Of a stretch of 64,000 nt of DNA, positions 35,920-63,911 are shown piece after piece. How positions within the stretch are numbered: the stretch's first letter is position 1; each line of letters opens with the position of its first letter. Location of the stretch: sequence record NC_014467.1; one strand, given 5' to 3'. A program made the translations under genes and the position numbers. The DNA is from Escherichia phage RB16. Under the pieces are notes generated by a model. The model worked only from the letters and a program-made list of their open reading frames with translations, made no database searches and was not told the DNA's origin.

Positions 35920-38139
35920 TTACAGTTTAACTTCTTTTTCTTCCAGGACGATTTCGCAATCGAATGTTGCACCTTCCCAGAACTTATGCGGGATAATGTC
36001 AGTCGCTTTAACCGATACTTTGGTTTCTTCAAAATCCATATCCGCAAACCAGGCGTGGCCTACAACGATACCGTACATTACACGGCTCAGGCGCTTGTTC
36101 AGTGCGCGTACTTCGTTGATGGTTGCCTTTGTTTCTTTATCAAGGTACTCGATTACCTTATCCTTGTCAAGCGCTGCGAGTTCAGCTTTAACAGCATCGT
36201 AAGCCCACAGGATGATCAGGTCGCCGTTGTTCAGTTTCTTCTTACCTTCGGCACGTTTCGCAACGGTTGCCGCTACAGCAGGAAGGGAGGAAACACCCTT
36301 GATTTTCAGATTCAGTTCTTTCGACATATAAACATCAGTCGAATCGGTACGGGTTACTTTCGGGGAGAATCCATAATCACGAATACCCTGTTCAGATAAC
36401 CATTCACCAGCGGCTTCACCGTATTTCTGTTTCAGACCTTCGGCATTACGTAAACCGATCGCGTCGTCACGGAAGAACTTCATCACCTTCTGGCGACCTT
36501 TCAGGATTTCCAGACGGATAGAGTCGTTTACATACTCTTTACCGGAGATCCCGCGAGTCATCGCACGGTTAACCAGAGGCAGACTTGTAAAGTCAACCAG
36601 AACCGACATACGGTCTTCACCGATTTTTGCCAGCGGCTTGATGGTCAAACCAGAAGCGCGGAGGTTTTTCAGTGTCGGAATATCAGTTTCCAGAGGCAGA
36701 ACTTTAACGTTTACGATACCGTCTTTAACGATGGTAAAGTTACGCACCTGCTTAGTTTCGATCTGTTCAGGCAGTCCCAGTTCTTTCTGTTTGCTTTCTG
36801 GGATAGTTACGTAACCTTGCAGATCCGTGTTAATGGAAATGTTAGGACGTGAACTGTTGCCGACCAGATGTTTAACCGATACTTTGGTTGTTGTCTGGGT
36901 AAATTTCGGTGTCCAGATTTCGTGCGTTACCATTTGTGCGGCTAATGCTTTGCGTTCTTCCGGTGTTTTCGCATTTGCGATCTGTTCTGACAGTTGATCC
37001 AGAGTATCATCTTCTTTCTGTACTGTCTGACGGCCTGTACGGTTGTACGCCCAGTGTTCAGAAGACAGGTCGATCACTGTGTCAGTTTCTGCCAGCAGTT
37101 CTAGAGCATCAACCAGAGTGAATGCGTTTTCGTCTGGAACCATGTTGTAATCAACACCTTCAATCAGACGTTTACCCGCATCAACTACCGCTTCCGCGAT
37201 CAGGTCTTTGGCGTTGGAATAATCCTGCTTAGTAAAGCAGTTATCGTAAGCCTTAATCAGACGAACGTCACCGACTTTTTTCAGCACTTTCCATGCCAGA
37301 TCAGGGTTCATGGTATGAAGTGCATGATACAGAACCACGTACAGAACCTGTTCACCTTCCATCGTAGCTGGATCAAATCCGTCGATATCGTTGATTGCGT
37401 TATCACCCAGCGCCCAGATGTTTTTGATATGCTCAGGAACCAGCACAACACCGTTTGCAGCGTTCAGGACATACACGCGCCCTTCGTCAATGTAGATCGC
37501 ATGGGTAGCATCACCTACTTTAACTTCAATACGCGCTGATGTTTGAGCGGTAATGATTTCAGCAAATGCTGGCTCGTATGCGTCGAAACCTTCAACGAAT
37601 TTATGCAATGCGTTGGTTGCTTCTGCCATTTTTTCCAGCAGAGGACGGTTAACATAGTAACCATATTCCAGGAACGCAATGCTGTTAAACGTCAGAGGGA
37701 GAACCGCACACGCTTTCAGGATGTCATCGGTACGCCAGCAGTTATCATAACCATCCGTCAGGAAGATCAGGCTGTTCAGGTTGCCGTTTTCGGATTGCAG
37801 GTCAGTTGCAATCTCAGCAGCCAGATTCAGAGGTTCGACGAAACCAGTACAACCAGTAGGTTTCAGATAACGGTCGATCGCGGTGCAGATATTGGTCAGA
37901 TCCGATACGTTGCTAACCTTCTCACCACGGAACACAGTACCGTAATCGCCTTTGCTGGAGAAGTACAGGATCGAAACAGTATCATCCTGTTTAACCAGGC
38001 TTGCCAGATTCGCTTTCAGGTGCTTACGAATTTTCGGCAATTCGCTGTACATTGAACCGGAAACGTCGCAAACGAAAACGTGGTTGGTCGGAGTCGGTTT
38101 AGATACTGCATTTTTGAATTCGATATTTGTAATTGACAT
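35920..38139 (-). CDS. von Willebrand factor A (vWA) domain protein, 739 aa
   Basis: N-terminal MIDAS motif DVSGSM with downstream FLTDGYDN; C-terminal ~500 aa unassigned. Confidence 0.7.
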   Translation of the reverse strand: MSITNIEFKNAVSKPTPTNHVFVCDVSGSMYSELPKIRKHLKANLASLVKQDDTVSILYFSSKGDYGTVFRGEKVSNVSDLTNICTAIDRYLKPTGCTGFVEPLNLAAEIATDLQSENGNLNSLIFLTDGYDNCWRTDDILKACAVLPLTFNSIAFLEYGYYVNRPLLEKMAEATNALHKFVEGFDAYEPAFAEIITAQTSARIEVKVGDATHAIYIDEGRVYVLNAANGVVLVPEHIKNIWALGDNAINDIDGFDPATMEGEQVLYVVLYHALHTMNPDLAWKVLKKVGDVRLIKAYDNCFTKQDYSNAKDLIAEAVVDAGKRLIEGVDYNMVPDENAFTLVDALELLAETDTVIDLSSEHWAYNRTGRQTVQKEDDTLDQLSEQIANAKTPEERKALAAQMVTHEIWTPKFTQTTTKVSVKHLVGNSSRPNISINTDLQGYVTIPESKQKELGLPEQIETKQVRNFTIVKDGIVNVKVLPLETDIPTLKNLRASGLTIKPLAKIGEDRMSVLVDFTSLPLVNRAMTRGISGKEYVNDSIRLEILKGRQKVMKFFRDDAIGLRNAEGLKQKYGEAAGEWLSEQGIRDYGFSPKVTRTDSTDVYMSKELNLKIKGVSSLPAVAATVAKRAEGKKKLNNGDLIILWAYDAVKAELAALDKDKVIEYLDKETKATINEVRALNKRLSRVMYGIVVGHAWFADMDFEETKVSVKATDIIPHKFWEGATFDCEIVLEEKEVKL

Positions 38140-40758: not shown

Positions 40759-41013
40759 TCAAAAAATATGCGTAAGGTTTCCGGCGTTGTTCGGGTATTC
40801 CACGTAATCGCCACGGAATATGTTTAGATCGGAATCGAACTTAAATCCTTGACCCCTGACATCCTCATGACGGGAAATATAAGAACATCCGTACTTTTGT
40901 AGATCTTCCATGTACATTTCAGTGATGCGTTTTGCTTTGTCCATTCCCCGACCTTCAAATCGGGAACGGCGATAATGTTCCAGCAAAAACGCATATAACT
41001 TTTCGTATGTCAC
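40759..41013 (-). CDS. hypothetical protein (84 aa)
   Basis: ORF track. Confidence 0.4.
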   Translation of the reverse strand: MTYEKLYAFLLEHYRRSRFEGRGMDKAKRITEMYMEDLQKYGCSYISRHEDVRGQGFKFDSDLNIFRGDYVEYPNNAGNLTHIF

Positions 41014-41918
41014 AGAACTTTCCTTATCTGTTTGGCTATTGCCTCGATAACTGGCACGGAAACGGAGTTACCCGCTTGCTTGTATGCTTGTTTTTTACTC
41101 GATGGAATAATAAACGAATCTGGGAAGCCTTGCAAGCGAAAACATTCACGCGGGGTTAATCGTCGTGGGTTCTTCCCGTCCTGCAACACCAGACATTGAA
41201 CGCCGTCCTTGTAATATTGCGCGGTGATGGTTCCTGTGTGCGTAGAATCGGCTGTGACGGCCTGATAACCAAAGCCCTTACCGTTTGCCTTATTTCGTTC
41301 CTTACGCTCTCTAAAGCCTTTCCACGCGTTATCTGATAGAGTGTACGAATCATCAGCATCTTCGAGGATATCACCTACGCGCGTAGGGGTACGCGGGGGA
41401 ACCGGAAACGAAAAGAATACATCATCCAGGAAGCAGACAATGAACACGCGTTCACGTCGCTGGGGTAGTCCGAAATCTTTTGTATTCAGTCGCTGATAGA
41501 ATACGTTGTATCCTTCGGCCTCAAGAAGCCCGTAAATCGTTTTAAACGTCTTTCCCTTGTCATGGGTTAGCAATTCAGGCACGTTCTCAAAGAACAGCAC
41601 ACGGGGCTTTTTAGCGCGTATGATGCGGAGGATTTCAAAGAACACCGTACCGCGAGCATCATCAAATCCCAGTTTCAATCCGGCTTTACTGAATGCCTGA
41701 CACGGGAACCCAGCCAACAGGATATCGTGATCGGGTACTTTGTTTTCATCAATGGCAAACAGATCACCCTGTAGGTTATCGTCGCCCCAGTTTTCAATAT
41801 AGGTTTGCTGTGCGTGTTTGTCGATCTCAGACGTTAAAAGGCATTCGACCCCGCCGAATGCATTATCAAATCCAAATCGAACTCCACCAACGCCAGCGCA
41901 GAGGTCAATTATTTTCAT
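41010..41918 (-). CDS. DNA (cytosine-5)-methyltransferase
   Basis: Motif I DLCAGVGG, motif IV GFPCQAFS, ENV motif. Confidence 0.85.
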   Translation of the reverse strand: MKIIDLCAGVGGVRFGFDNAFGGVECLLTSEIDKHAQQTYIENWGDDNLQGDLFAIDENKVPDHDILLAGFPCQAFSKAGLKLGFDDARGTVFFEILRIIRAKKPRVLFFENVPELLTHDKGKTFKTIYGLLEAEGYNVFYQRLNTKDFGLPQRRERVFIVCFLDDVFFSFPVPPRTPTRVGDILEDADDSYTLSDNAWKGFRERKERNKANGKGFGYQAVTADSTHTGTITAQYYKDGVQCLVLQDGKNPRRLTPRECFRLQGFPDSFIIPSSKKQAYKQAGNSVSVPVIEAIAKQIRKVL

Positions 41919-45774: not shown

Positions 45775-46836
45775 TCAAGCAACCCCCGTAAAGGCGTTTA
45801 CTATCTGGAAATGATCATCGAAGAATTCCCCTTGTCGTTGTACGACCTCATGTAAGGGCATCCAGAACGCCTCTGCTGCATCGTCAGCGCCTCCCATAAT
45901 GCGGGGCAGACTTCCATCATTGTTAGGTTCTAACTTGATGTATTGCGCTACAGTCGGTTTTGAGAAGTGTACGGAACGCTTCGGATGATCAAACAACATC
46001 GAATTGCGAATTGAACCACGGATAACCTTTTCAGGAACCTTGATCCGAACCTCTTCGAGCAATTCACGGATCGCACAATCCAGGAATGTTTCGTTTGCGT
46101 TTTTGTGTCCACCTGGCAGGGCCAACGCGCCTTTACCCGGTGCAAACTTACGACGAATTACCAGAAGGTGATTGTTACACACAACCACGCTATCACCCGT
46201 ACAACAGTTTAACGCGTCGGGGTATGGGTACGCTTTGAACTTCTCCAGTTCATCTTCCCATTTCTCGAACTCGTAGTACAAGCGCCAGAACGTATCGGTC
46301 ATCATCCATCCGTTAAGAGAACCCACGACAGCAGCAGGAACATAACGGGCGATCTTCTCGTCCCATCCATTTTTATGTAAAAATATGGTTGGACGCAGGT
46401 CGGTAGCAGATAAATCTTTGCCGTCAACCTTAACCGGATCAACCGGAACATGAGTCCATCCGAACGCTTTAAGCCAGTACGAATCAGCATCTTTTTCGTA
46501 ACCGTAGATCGCGATGTTATCGCCTTTAGTTTCGTCGATTGCTGTACGAACAGAGGTTTTCCATTTTTCTTCATTGTAAAGGTAATCTGGAATCGGTTTG
46601 AATTGCACACGGGACACATCTTCATATTTGAACTCAGACAGTAACCAGCTTGTAATCATACGTTCCCGTTCGGTTGCTGTTAGCGGGTTTAAAACGTTAG
46701 GGTAAGCATAAGCGGAACCCAGGAGGATATAAACGGCCTTCGACTCTTCAAGTGCTTTACGCACCATTGCCGCATGACCATTATGGAAGGGTTGGAATCT
46801 GCCAATTACGACAGCTTTATCAAATTTGTATTTCAT
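45775..46836 (-). CDS. bifunctional NMN adenylyltransferase / Nudix hydrolase (NadM/NatV-like)
   Basis: N-terminal HxGH motif (GRFQPFHNGH); C-terminal Nudix box (GGHKNANETFLDCAIRELLEEVRI). Confidence 0.8.
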   Translation of the reverse strand: MKYKFDKAVVIGRFQPFHNGHAAMVRKALEESKAVYILLGSAYAYPNVLNPLTATERERMITSWLLSEFKYEDVSRVQFKPIPDYLYNEEKWKTSVRTAIDETKGDNIAIYGYEKDADSYWLKAFGWTHVPVDPVKVDGKDLSATDLRPTIFLHKNGWDEKIARYVPAAVVGSLNGWMMTDTFWRLYYEFEKWEDELEKFKAYPYPDALNCCTGDSVVVCNNHLLVIRRKFAPGKGALALPGGHKNANETFLDCAIRELLEEVRIKVPEKVIRGSIRNSMLFDHPKRSVHFSKPTVAQYIKLEPNNDGSLPRIMGGADDAAEAFWMPLHEVVQRQGEFFDDHFQIVNAFTGVA

Positions 46837-46861
46837 AACGTGCTCCACGTTTAAAGGGTAA

Positions 46862-46960
46862 TCATAAAACAGACGCAATAATCAATACACCAAGCAAACC
46901 GCCAATAAAGCCGAAGAATAGCGAAATGAAGATAGATAAGATGATCTGTTTTATGTTCAT
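46862..46960 (-). CDS. small hydrophobic peptide (32 aa), candidate membrane micro-protein
   Basis: Hand-translated MNIKQIILSIFISLFFGFIGGLLGVLIIASVL between SPFH and NMNAT genes; below ORF-track cut-off. Confidence 0.3.
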   Translation of the reverse strand: MNIKQIILSIFISLFFGFIGGLLGVLIIASVL

Positions 46961-62672: not shown

Positions 62673-62750
62673 GATGTTTTCCTTTCTGTGTTTCGTTTCG
62701 ATGTGTGTAATATAACAAAGCCCTTACAGTAATACAAGGGCTTTTTCAAT
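62673..62750 (-). promoter_or_regulatory. promoter/stem-loop cassette (TTGTAT in hairpin AGCCCTTGTATTACTGTAAGGGCT, 17-bp spacer, TATATT)
   Basis: Read on minus strand. Confidence 0.55.
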
Positions 62751-63059
62751 TTATTCGAATTTTTTTGGCAACTGGTCTACAAGTGTTTGAGTTTGATGAA
62801 GTTCTTCACTCAATTTATCACGATATTGAACCAGTTCGCGGGTTCGTGATGCGGAATAGCTAATGATTTTATCCGCGTTAGCCATGTAACCGTAACCAGC
62901 ACACGCGATTTCCAGTTTTGCGTTATCGCCGTTAGGTACGCGGATATGAGCATACGCCAGCAAGTTTTTAACCGCTTGTAACAGTTCATGATCTTCTTTA
63001 CCGATGATAAACTGGTTTGGTTCTACTGAATCAACATTCAGTTCTTCGTCTTTGTTCAT
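62751..63059 (-). CDS. hypothetical protein (102 aa)
   Basis: ORF track. Confidence 0.45.
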   Translation of the reverse strand: MNKDEELNVDSVEPNQFIIGKEDHELLQAVKNLLAYAHIRVPNGDNAKLEIACAGYGYMANADKIISYSASRTRELVQYRDKLSEELHQTQTLVDQLPKKFE

Positions 63060-63589
63060 TTTGCAGCCTTATACATTTCAATTACGCGTTTCATGTGCTC
63101 TTGTGATTGAGGCACACCAGCGAAATTCAATTTAATGAAGAATTCAAGACGATCCTTTTTATTACATTCATCCAACCCCAGGGCAGGTAATGACAGGTTT
63201 TCAAAGGCGCGTTGTTCGTGTCGCTGCATATCGTCCCAGAACAGACGGGAACCATCCGACATAGGAATCCCTATCTCACCTTCATAAACTTTGATAATCG
63301 TCGTCAGGCGTTGCTTGCCGTCGATTACTTCGACCCAGTGAGATTCGTTAAACTCGCTATCAACAGCGATCGCGATAATACCGCAAGGGAAACCCGTGAT
63401 CAACGTGGTCAGGAATTCATCTTGTTCTTTCTGCGTCCACACATAGGGGCGCTGATATGATGGATTCAGATCCAGATCCTTATTTTTCCACCAGTGGATA
63501 TAACTTCCAACCATGATCGCATGTTCACGACTTCTGAAAGTTATCCGTTCACGAATTCGGTTACGGGCTGGGATATCATCTTTAGACAT
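63056..63589 (-). CDS. DUF262 / ParB-like (sulfiredoxin-fold) domain protein, 177 aa
   Basis: Signature motifs QRPYVW and DGKQRLTT. Confidence 0.6.
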   Translation of the reverse strand: MSKDDIPARNRIRERITFRSREHAIMVGSYIHWWKNKDLDLNPSYQRPYVWTQKEQDEFLTTLITGFPCGIIAIAVDSEFNESHWVEVIDGKQRLTTIIKVYEGEIGIPMSDGSRLFWDDMQRHEQRAFENLSLPALGLDECNKKDRLEFFIKLNFAGVPQSQEHMKRVIEMYKAAK

Positions 63590-63911
63590 TATGGATCACC
63601 CACAGCAATAAACAAGAATTGATAACCGCGAAAGTGGTACAAATTGCAGCAAAAACACGCGCATTATGAACATCAGTTTTCAGTTCTGCGATCTCTTGAT
63701 CCTTTTCGCTTTCGAATTCGTCGCGGGTTCCGTAATAGCCAGGATCAGCAGGGGTAGAGATACGCACCGCATCTTTTTCTACAATAGTCGCATAACCATT
63801 GTTTACATTTGTTGCACCGTACCAATCACCACGGTCATTGTTAATGATCAGGTGTTGCCCCTTTTCATTGTGCTTTGCTTCACCAGTGACAACTACACGT
63901 TTACCGTTCAT
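63582..63911 (-). CDS. hypothetical protein with C-terminal membrane anchor (109 aa)
   Basis: ORF track; hydrophobic C-terminus. Confidence 0.45.
   Translation of the reverse strand: MNGKRVVVTGEAKHNEKGQHLIINNDRGDWYGATNVNNGYATIVEKDAVRISTPADPGYYGTRDEFESEKDQEIAELKTDVHNARVFAAICTTFAVINSCLLLWVIHNV

Follow-up and report, generated by a model that had tools for sequence, protein, structure and literature searches.

A complete DUF262 gene in phage RB16

We examined a stretch of 64,000 nucleotides (nt) from Escherichia phage RB16 (NC_014467.1), called the window in this text, and in particular a gene near its end that encodes a DUF262 protein of 177 amino acids (aa). The source is an RB43-type T4-like phage (Straboviridae, Pseudotevenvirus). 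Its gp25 is 100% identical to that of a Pseudotevenvirus RB43 record, and the 177-aa protein is 97% identical to RB43ORF182c of RB43 and to the corresponding proteins of Lw1 and CfP1, in agreement with an earlier note on this DNA that had described a stand-alone phage copy of the domain. The window ends 411 nt beyond the open reading frame (ORF), which therefore lies fully inside. The gene and its three motifs are arranged as follows:

63056..63589, minus strand: DUF262 gene, orthologue of RB43ORF182c; complete ORF with ATG start, 177 aa, 20.9 kDa, isoelectric point (pI) 6.2
63437..63454, minus strand: motif I, QRPYVW (the QRxxxW of DUF262), aa 46-51
63299..63322, minus strand: motif II, DGKQRLTT, predicted phosphate-binding loop, aa 90-97
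63116..63139, minus strand: motif III, FIKLNFAG (FxxxN..G), aa 151-158

The assignment to a DUF262 ParB/sulfiredoxin-like domain, made in the earlier note from the first two motifs, was borne out by a profile search and a structural model. The match to Pfam PF03235 (GmrSD_N, formerly DUF262) extends over aa 40-160 and profile positions 12-187 of 199. At 73.7 bits (E=2.8e-20) it clearly exceeds the gathering cut-off of 33.2 bits and is far beyond chance. Among the PHROGs the protein matches phrog_1583 (E=2e-59; function unknown). The NCBIfam scan gave no match, and the Pfam scan of the protein revealed neither PF02195 nor a helix-turn-helix (HTH) domain at E<=1. There is no nuclease domain in the 177 aa either, so the note was right that no partner nuclease is fused. 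The best defence-model matches in PADLOC are NsnA (4e-16) and PD-T4-2_A (3e-12), of which the NsnA model aligns over its positions 45-200 of 385 only.

All three DUF262 motifs as defined in PMC12065111 are present. In the family alignment Q46 and R47 of motif I and D90, G91, K92, Q93 and R94 of motif II are invariant, and N155 and G158 of motif III nearly so. A conserved PQSxEH directly follows motif III, and the protein terminates 19 residues past G158. The DGKQR of motif II is the counterpart of DGQQR in GmrSD and SspE, with a clade-specific K in place of Q. A PDB sequence search with the single protein gave spurious matches only; BrxU, DndI and SspE came up once a family profile was used. 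The three conserved blocks of this profile align to QRxxxW, DGxQR and FxxxN..G of these proteins, although the identity to BrxU and SspE is just 14–18%. In characterised DUF262 proteins these motifs build the nucleoside triphosphate (NTP) site (PMC12065111, PMC10952713, PMC4619093), and the motif set suggests that the 177-aa protein probably binds and hydrolyses NTP as well. The AlphaFold2 model, computed from a 26-sequence alignment, is confident (predicted local distance difference test score, pLDDT, 88; predicted template modelling score, pTM, 0.83). As modelled, the protein resembles the N-domains of BrxU, SspE and ParB and has the ParB/sulfiredoxin fold. That it would be a DNA nickase, as the note had suggested among other roles, or a nuclease by virtue of a 'ParB-like nuclease' fold has found no support and is highly improbable: in the characterised enzymes DUF1524/HNH does the cutting and DUF262 is the NTPase (PMC10952713, PMC4619093), and the phage protein is slightly acidic (pI 6.2) with no recognised DNA-binding domain.

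Orthologues of 165–177 aa with the same end point occur in 254 phage records (at least 80% coverage). At 60% identity or more the gene is found in 171 records, compared with 175 that carry gp25 at 80% identity or more, and is thus near-universal in Pseudotevenvirus and Slopekvirus. Copies with 37–46% identity are present in RB49-type Krischvirus, in Mydovirus DP, in an Erwinia phage and in the lambdoid Salmonella phage ST64B. Among the 1467 records with a gp25 homologue (T4-like phages), the gene is limited to three genera. RB43 and RB49, type phages of genera that carry it, do not have the hydroxymethylcytosine gene 42 (PMC2993671). This genus pattern fits a role tied to unmodified or 5-methylcytosine (5mC) DNA; equally, it may reflect phylogeny.

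The ratio of nonsynonymous to synonymous substitution rates (dN/dS), calculated against two orthologues, is about 0.08, and the gene is under strong purifying selection. We could rule out a fragment or a pseudogene, the former an alternative raised in the note: length and end point are shared by more than 250 phages, the tail past motif III has a median of 18 residues in 178 family members, dN/dS is 0.08 and the translational coupling with the neighbouring ORFs is intact.

Neighbouring genes and the search for a partner

The DUF262 gene is flanked by the following features:

63582..63911, minus strand: upstream ORF, 109 aa, function unknown (phrog_7472)
62751..63059, minus strand: downstream ORF, 102 aa, function unknown (phrog_15764)
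62717..62744, minus strand: terminator-like hairpin with a 12-bp stem, identified in the sequence just after the 102-aa ORF

The ATG of the DUF262 gene overlaps the stop of the 109-aa ORF by 8 nt, and its own TGA overlaps the ATG of the 102-aa ORF as ATGA. The hairpin, terminator-like as judged from its sequence, may close the minus-strand transcription unit after the 102-aa ORF. The 109-aa protein has a hydrophobic C-terminal helix and a tail-anchored look. Its gene is always upstream in RB43-type phages and absent beside the RB49, ST64B and Mydovirus copies; it is genomic context, not a demonstrated partner of the DUF262 protein. The slot just downstream is hypervariable, being occupied by the 102-aa ORF in the window and in UPEC03 and by a 41-aa ORF in RB43. 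Many phages of Klebsiella, Enterobacter and Cronobacter have instead an insert of about 1 kb with a 175-aa ORF on the opposite strand. The 102-aa protein has a further match, to the C-terminal third of phrog_10932 (304 positions). Small CxxC-rich proteins with weak similarity to the central zinc-finger region of DnaJ recur in this accessory cluster (62278-62499, minus strand, in the window; L001:10037-10474 in the locus of a relative). The DUF262 gene sits where T4 has its ip genes, and its N-terminal I-R-E resembles the L/I-x-E prohead-protease site. We dropped the idea of a capsid-targeted internal protein because the E of this tripeptide is a D in close orthologues.

The region beyond the window end, where the note had proposed to look for a partner, was read in the relatives UPEC03, phi1_146015 and RB43, and their ORFs were scanned with Pfam and PADLOC. 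It contains small hypothetical genes, nudE, DUF7415, zinc-ribbon-like proteins, RNA ligase, 57A and gene 1. Neither there nor in the flanking ORFs of the window did we find a nuclease or a match to a defence model, and the idea of a partner nuclease just past the window end was rejected. With PADLOC the ten flanking proteins gave nothing at E<=0.01, and no DUF1524/HNH, NsnB/C or RelA/SpoT match was seen in the flanking genes of the window or its relatives. We also built profiles of the C-terminal domain, the RelA/SpoT partner and the Eco57I-like methyltransferase from the bacterial long-form loci described below. No match at E<=10 was obtained in the window and eight related loci, and a split architecture with a separate ParBDB-like domain, RelA/SpoT protein or methyltransferase was rejected. 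No neighbours are homologous across the window, RB49, ST64B and Mydovirus DP. The gene has spread as a single-gene cassette, and from these contexts it appears to move and work as one in unrelated phages.

These results bear on the possibility that the protein is part of a phage-borne defence or superinfection-exclusion system, as a GmrS-like subunit whose nuclease or toxin is encoded elsewhere. Such a system would have a precedent in the original GmrSD, which consists of two subunits with a DUF262-only GmrS (PMC4619093). The defence-model matches, the Pharokka label 'DefenseFinder protein' in two records and the presence of the gene among the early-left accessory genes of the temperate phage ST64B point in the same direction. 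We nevertheless consider it quite improbable, given that the flanks are devoid of the effector and defence matches sought, that no neighbour is kept across phage lineages and that the second conserved region and the helical domain of GmrS (about 300 aa) are missing (PMC4619093).

Methyltransferases deserve separate mention. An ORF annotated as such lies one gene from the RB49 copy and another about 1 kb from the Mydovirus DP copy; the window encodes a C5-cytosine DNA methyltransferase (41010-41918, minus strand; PF00145, E=1e-93) 22 kb from the DUF262 gene. At 80% identity or more this enzyme is kept in 171 Pseudotevenvirus and Slopekvirus records, which equals the count for the DUF262 gene. 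The RB49 ORF, RB49p189 ('DNA methyltransferase', L005:1451-2167), is located one gene upstream of the DUF262 gene and has no Pfam match at E<=0.001; it shows FDGSG, FPPC and ENP, which are reminiscent of the C5-methyltransferase motifs I, IV and VI.

The protein might serve as an accessory factor that activates or regulates a phage enzyme of DNA modification or metabolism, the candidates being the C5-methyltransferase or the replication machinery. The models would be ParB176 with the phage T-dioxygenase, DpdB with DpdA and DndB with the dnd operon; a DNA dioxygenase is activated by a phage ParB-like protein that has no DNA-binding domain (PMC13229309). Besides the two nearby methyltransferase ORFs and the equal record counts, the location of distant 262-aa relatives in a replication module, between a DnaB helicase and an exonuclease, is in line with such a role. 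However, the RB49 and DP ORFs show no relationship with one another or with the window enzyme, and the window lacks both, so that a shared methyltransferase partner could be discarded and the support from proximity is weak. The methyltransferase of the window is distant, the ST64B copy has none nearby, and the equal counts may simply reflect the shared ancestry of two sister genera. On balance we regard this explanation as rather unlikely.

Several other genes of the window, all on the minus strand, are worth recording. A group of small genes of early type includes one for a 423-aa protein (58403-59674) with a SPASM iron-sulfur domain (E=1.3e-5), labelled 'SPASM domain-containing' or 'Fe-S oxidoreductase' in relatives; a phage radical-SAM-type maturase would be unusual. 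A cytidylyltransferase-like and NUDIX fusion is encoded at 45775-46878, and the RB43 label describes it as similar to nicotinamide mononucleotide (NMN) adenylyltransferase/Nudix hydrolase. The relative UPEC03 additionally encodes a nicotinamide phosphoribosyltransferase, and the pair resembles the phage NAD+ reconstitution (NARP2-type) pathway. We further noticed a 467-aa fusion of a PIN domain with a PhoH-like ATPase (53252-54655) and a protein of 739 aa whose N-terminal part is a von Willebrand factor A domain (35920-38139; the hypothetical RB43ORF119c in RB43).

The DGKQR clade and its cellular relatives

An exhaustive profile search returned 760 cluster representatives at E<1e-30, of which the best 150 are 150–370 aa long. 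Among the 178 members retrieved, 176 carry DGKQR instead of the GmrSD-type DGQQR; QRxxxW is present in 176 and FxxxNxxG in 174. These members almost all end about 18 residues past motif III and thus have neither the nuclease nor the helical DNA-binding domain known from GmrSD, BrxU and SspE. Most members reach 260–300 aa because of an N-terminal extension, which is predicted to form a helix and a five-strand beta domain. All five genomic contexts that we inspected are phage-like, and cultured phages carry the clade too. The 262-aa relative of the replication module mentioned above lies on a 56-kb contig, and another clade gene adjoins a T4 gp2-like gene. With phrog_1583, DGKQR, a short tail and a phage context, the window protein belongs to this clade. 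According to a structure search in BFVD, many phages and giant viruses have DUF262 proteins, some of them DUF262-only and others longer. On one Klebsiella grimontii contig, two short DGKQR ORFs are found less than 6 kb apart (L014:471-966 and L014:5992-6522); since the first resembles temperate Klebsiella phage genes, the region is probably a prophage with a duplicated or paralogous mini-DUF262. Our literature searches yielded no characterised stand-alone DUF262 protein of a phage and no functional study of the DGKQR clade. Hundreds of phage records already contain the gene, labelled 'hypothetical' or 'DUF262 domain-containing'.

For cellular relatives, one genome per prokaryotic species was scanned with the pattern [VI][IV]DGKQRLx[TA], and 80 loci were kept. 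Short phage-type proteins, apparently prophage-borne, account for 16 of them. The other 64 encode proteins of about 350 aa, in which the core is followed by a C-terminal domain of about 190 aa; they are 34–36% identical to the window protein over 98–134 residues (E about 1e-16 to 1e-17) and match PADLOC NsnA (about 1e-30 to 1e-35) and PD-T4-2_A. A RelA_SpoT-domain gene starts at most 200 nt downstream in 40 of these 64 loci (PF04607 at E 2.5e-5 to 6.5e-14 in the seven partner genes tested), and in some an Eco57I-like methyltransferase lies upstream. No RelA/SpoT partner, Eco57I-like methyltransferase or separately encoded C-terminal domain accompanies the 16 short forms, the window gene or the copies at the phage loci that we fetched.

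In these 40 loci the long forms are part of a recurrent module of two or three genes in diverse bacteria, in which a DGKQR DUF262 protein of about 350 aa precedes a RelA_SpoT protein of about 320–350 aa, often with a stop/start overlap:

L023:4490-8076, L027:4581-8004 and L043:5968-8030, bacterial genome loci: examples of the DUF262-RelA_SpoT module

It looks like a defence system composed of a sensor and an alarmone or toxSAS-type effector, and the effector weakly matches the PADLOC candidate PDC-S33. We found no paper that joins DUF262 with RelA-SpoT or toxSAS in our literature searches.

The likeness to sensor-type proteins raises the question of whether the phage protein is an anti-defence poison subunit or a decoy, the latter being another suggestion of the note, that pairs or competes with a host DUF262 sensor and blocks its activation. 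Possible targets would be the GmrSD/BrxU type IV enzymes, Menshen NsnA, PD-T4-2, Dazbog or the DUF262-RelA/SpoT pairs. NsnA and PD-T4-2_A are its top defence-model matches, and its nearest cellular relatives are the sensor-type proteins with the same DGKQR. DUF262-only proteins pair with GmrSD proteins in ECOR17 (PMC12373910), and the function of BrxU involves a dimer-monomer cycling of its DUF262 domain (PMC10952713). Moreover, all RB43-type and Slopek-type phages carry the C5-cytosine methyltransferase, which should expose their DNA to GmrSD-family enzymes that read 5mC, for instance BrxU. Against this stand the age, size and distinctness of the clade, with its 760 representatives and its own invariant K, as well as the low identity to BrxU and SspE and the failure of a single-sequence search to reach any PDB relative. 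Anti-defence genes are usually patchy and fast-evolving, whereas this one is near-universal and slow-evolving in two genera. Finally, none of the 64 long-form loci stems from Enterobacteriaceae, the host family. A decoy is, in our view, unlikely. The same doubt applies to the wider proposal that the mini-DUF262 is a virus-encoded NTP-gated antagonist, that is, an effector-less and catalytically competent copy of a sensor that would poison or pre-empt DUF262-based immunity.

A bare nucleotide-binding module and its known counterparts

We favour the explanation that the 177-aa protein is a bare DUF262 module, an autonomous NTP-binding and probably NTP-hydrolysing ParB/sulfiredoxin-fold protein that serves as a nucleotide-gated switch or a small enzyme (probability roughly 0.55). 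It would be produced from a group of small accessory genes that runs leftward between endolysin and gene 57A/1. Its nucleotide pocket, to which no DNA-binding or effector domain is attached, would bind and probably hydrolyse NTP, and the protein would act alone. By analogy with other ParB-fold domains, the most plausible route is NTP-dependent self-association or the binding of a protein partner. It would neither read nor cleave DNA in the manner of GmrSD, BrxU and SspE: the 19-residue tail past motif III, the partial NsnA alignment and the pI of 6.2 suggest that there is no DNA-binding add-on. The best reading is that the phage DUF262 protein is not a restriction enzyme; its role probably lies in phage-host conflict or in phage DNA metabolism. 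Phage single-domain ParB folds (PMC12704722), sulfiredoxin and SerK may serve as precedents for a module of this kind.

Several points weigh against this explanation. NTP binding is read from motif conservation only; mutations of equivalent residues in one phage ParB-like activator did not eliminate its function (PMC13229309), and the nucleotide specificity of ParB folds is not predictable from sequence (PMC12704722). The screen for a distant partner was limited to about 130 kb of related phage sequence. Promoter-like sites at the locus are no commoner than in shuffled sequence, and the searched literature holds no biochemical or genetic data for any DGKQR-clade member.

Few sensor/NTPase modules recur as often in bacterial immunity as DUF262, which is part of GmrSD, BrxU, SspE, DndI, Menshen, Dazbog and PD-T4-2. 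Several unrelated phage lineages keep it here on its own, with an intact pocket and under strong purifying selection. The phage protein thus offers a small, soluble-sized and experimentally tractable version in which the nucleotide specificity, dimerisation and partner binding of the isolated pocket can be studied, and it could reveal whether phages deploy the module against DUF262-based defences. If the antagonist proposal were true, it would explain the retention of the gene by all T4-like phages whose cytosine is plain or 5mC, and the marine and jumbo phage members of the clade would belong to an anti-defence family that is widespread but has gone unrecognised. The practical significance stays modest as long as no phenotype turns up, and consists for now in the correct annotation of a known, uncharacterised gene.

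With GmrSD, BrxU, SspE and DndI the bare module shares the DUF262 N-terminal domain. In every characterised DUF262 defence protein the core is followed by a helical ParBDB domain and DUF1524/HNH, whereas the phage protein has neither this helical middle nor the nuclease. Motifs II and III are separated by about 60 aa, compared with about 130 aa in BrxU, and unlike these systems the gene is a virus-encoded single-gene cassette. As no nuclease is present in the protein or encoded by adjacent genes and the helical DNA-binding domain is missing, it cannot be classed with the GmrSD-family type IV enzymes. The models for Menshen (NsnABC) and PD-T4-2 match only the DUF262 core, and none of the ten flanking proteins matches the NsnB ABC-ATPase, the NsnC effector or PD-T4-2_B at E<=0.01. 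The bacterial proteins of about 350 aa have the DGKQR variant and the compact core in common with the phage protein, but not their additional C-terminal domain of about 190 aa or the RelA/SpoT gene.

The likeness to canonical ParB (ParABS) is confined to the fold of the N-domain; the phage protein is single-domain and matches neither PF02195 nor an HTH at E<=1. The active site of sulfiredoxin is a Cys-containing motif, at the position of which the phage protein shows DGKQR. In the case of SerK/SbnI, no kinase substrate is suggested by the phage gene context. ParB176, DndB and DpdB are ParB-fold accessory factors of DNA modification without a classical DNA-binding domain (PMC13229309); they are encoded beside their client enzyme, while the phage DUF262 gene has no conserved neighbour, and ParB176 needs a C-terminal dimerisation domain that the phage protein does not possess. 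Single-domain ParB-fold proteins of phages have been proposed as independent units (Kaljevic et al., PMC12704722), in a survey of single-domain ParB-CTPase folds that used PF02195, whereas the protein described here is DUF262. The phage clade is set apart from every characterised DUF262 member by its minimal architecture and by a DGKQR of its own.
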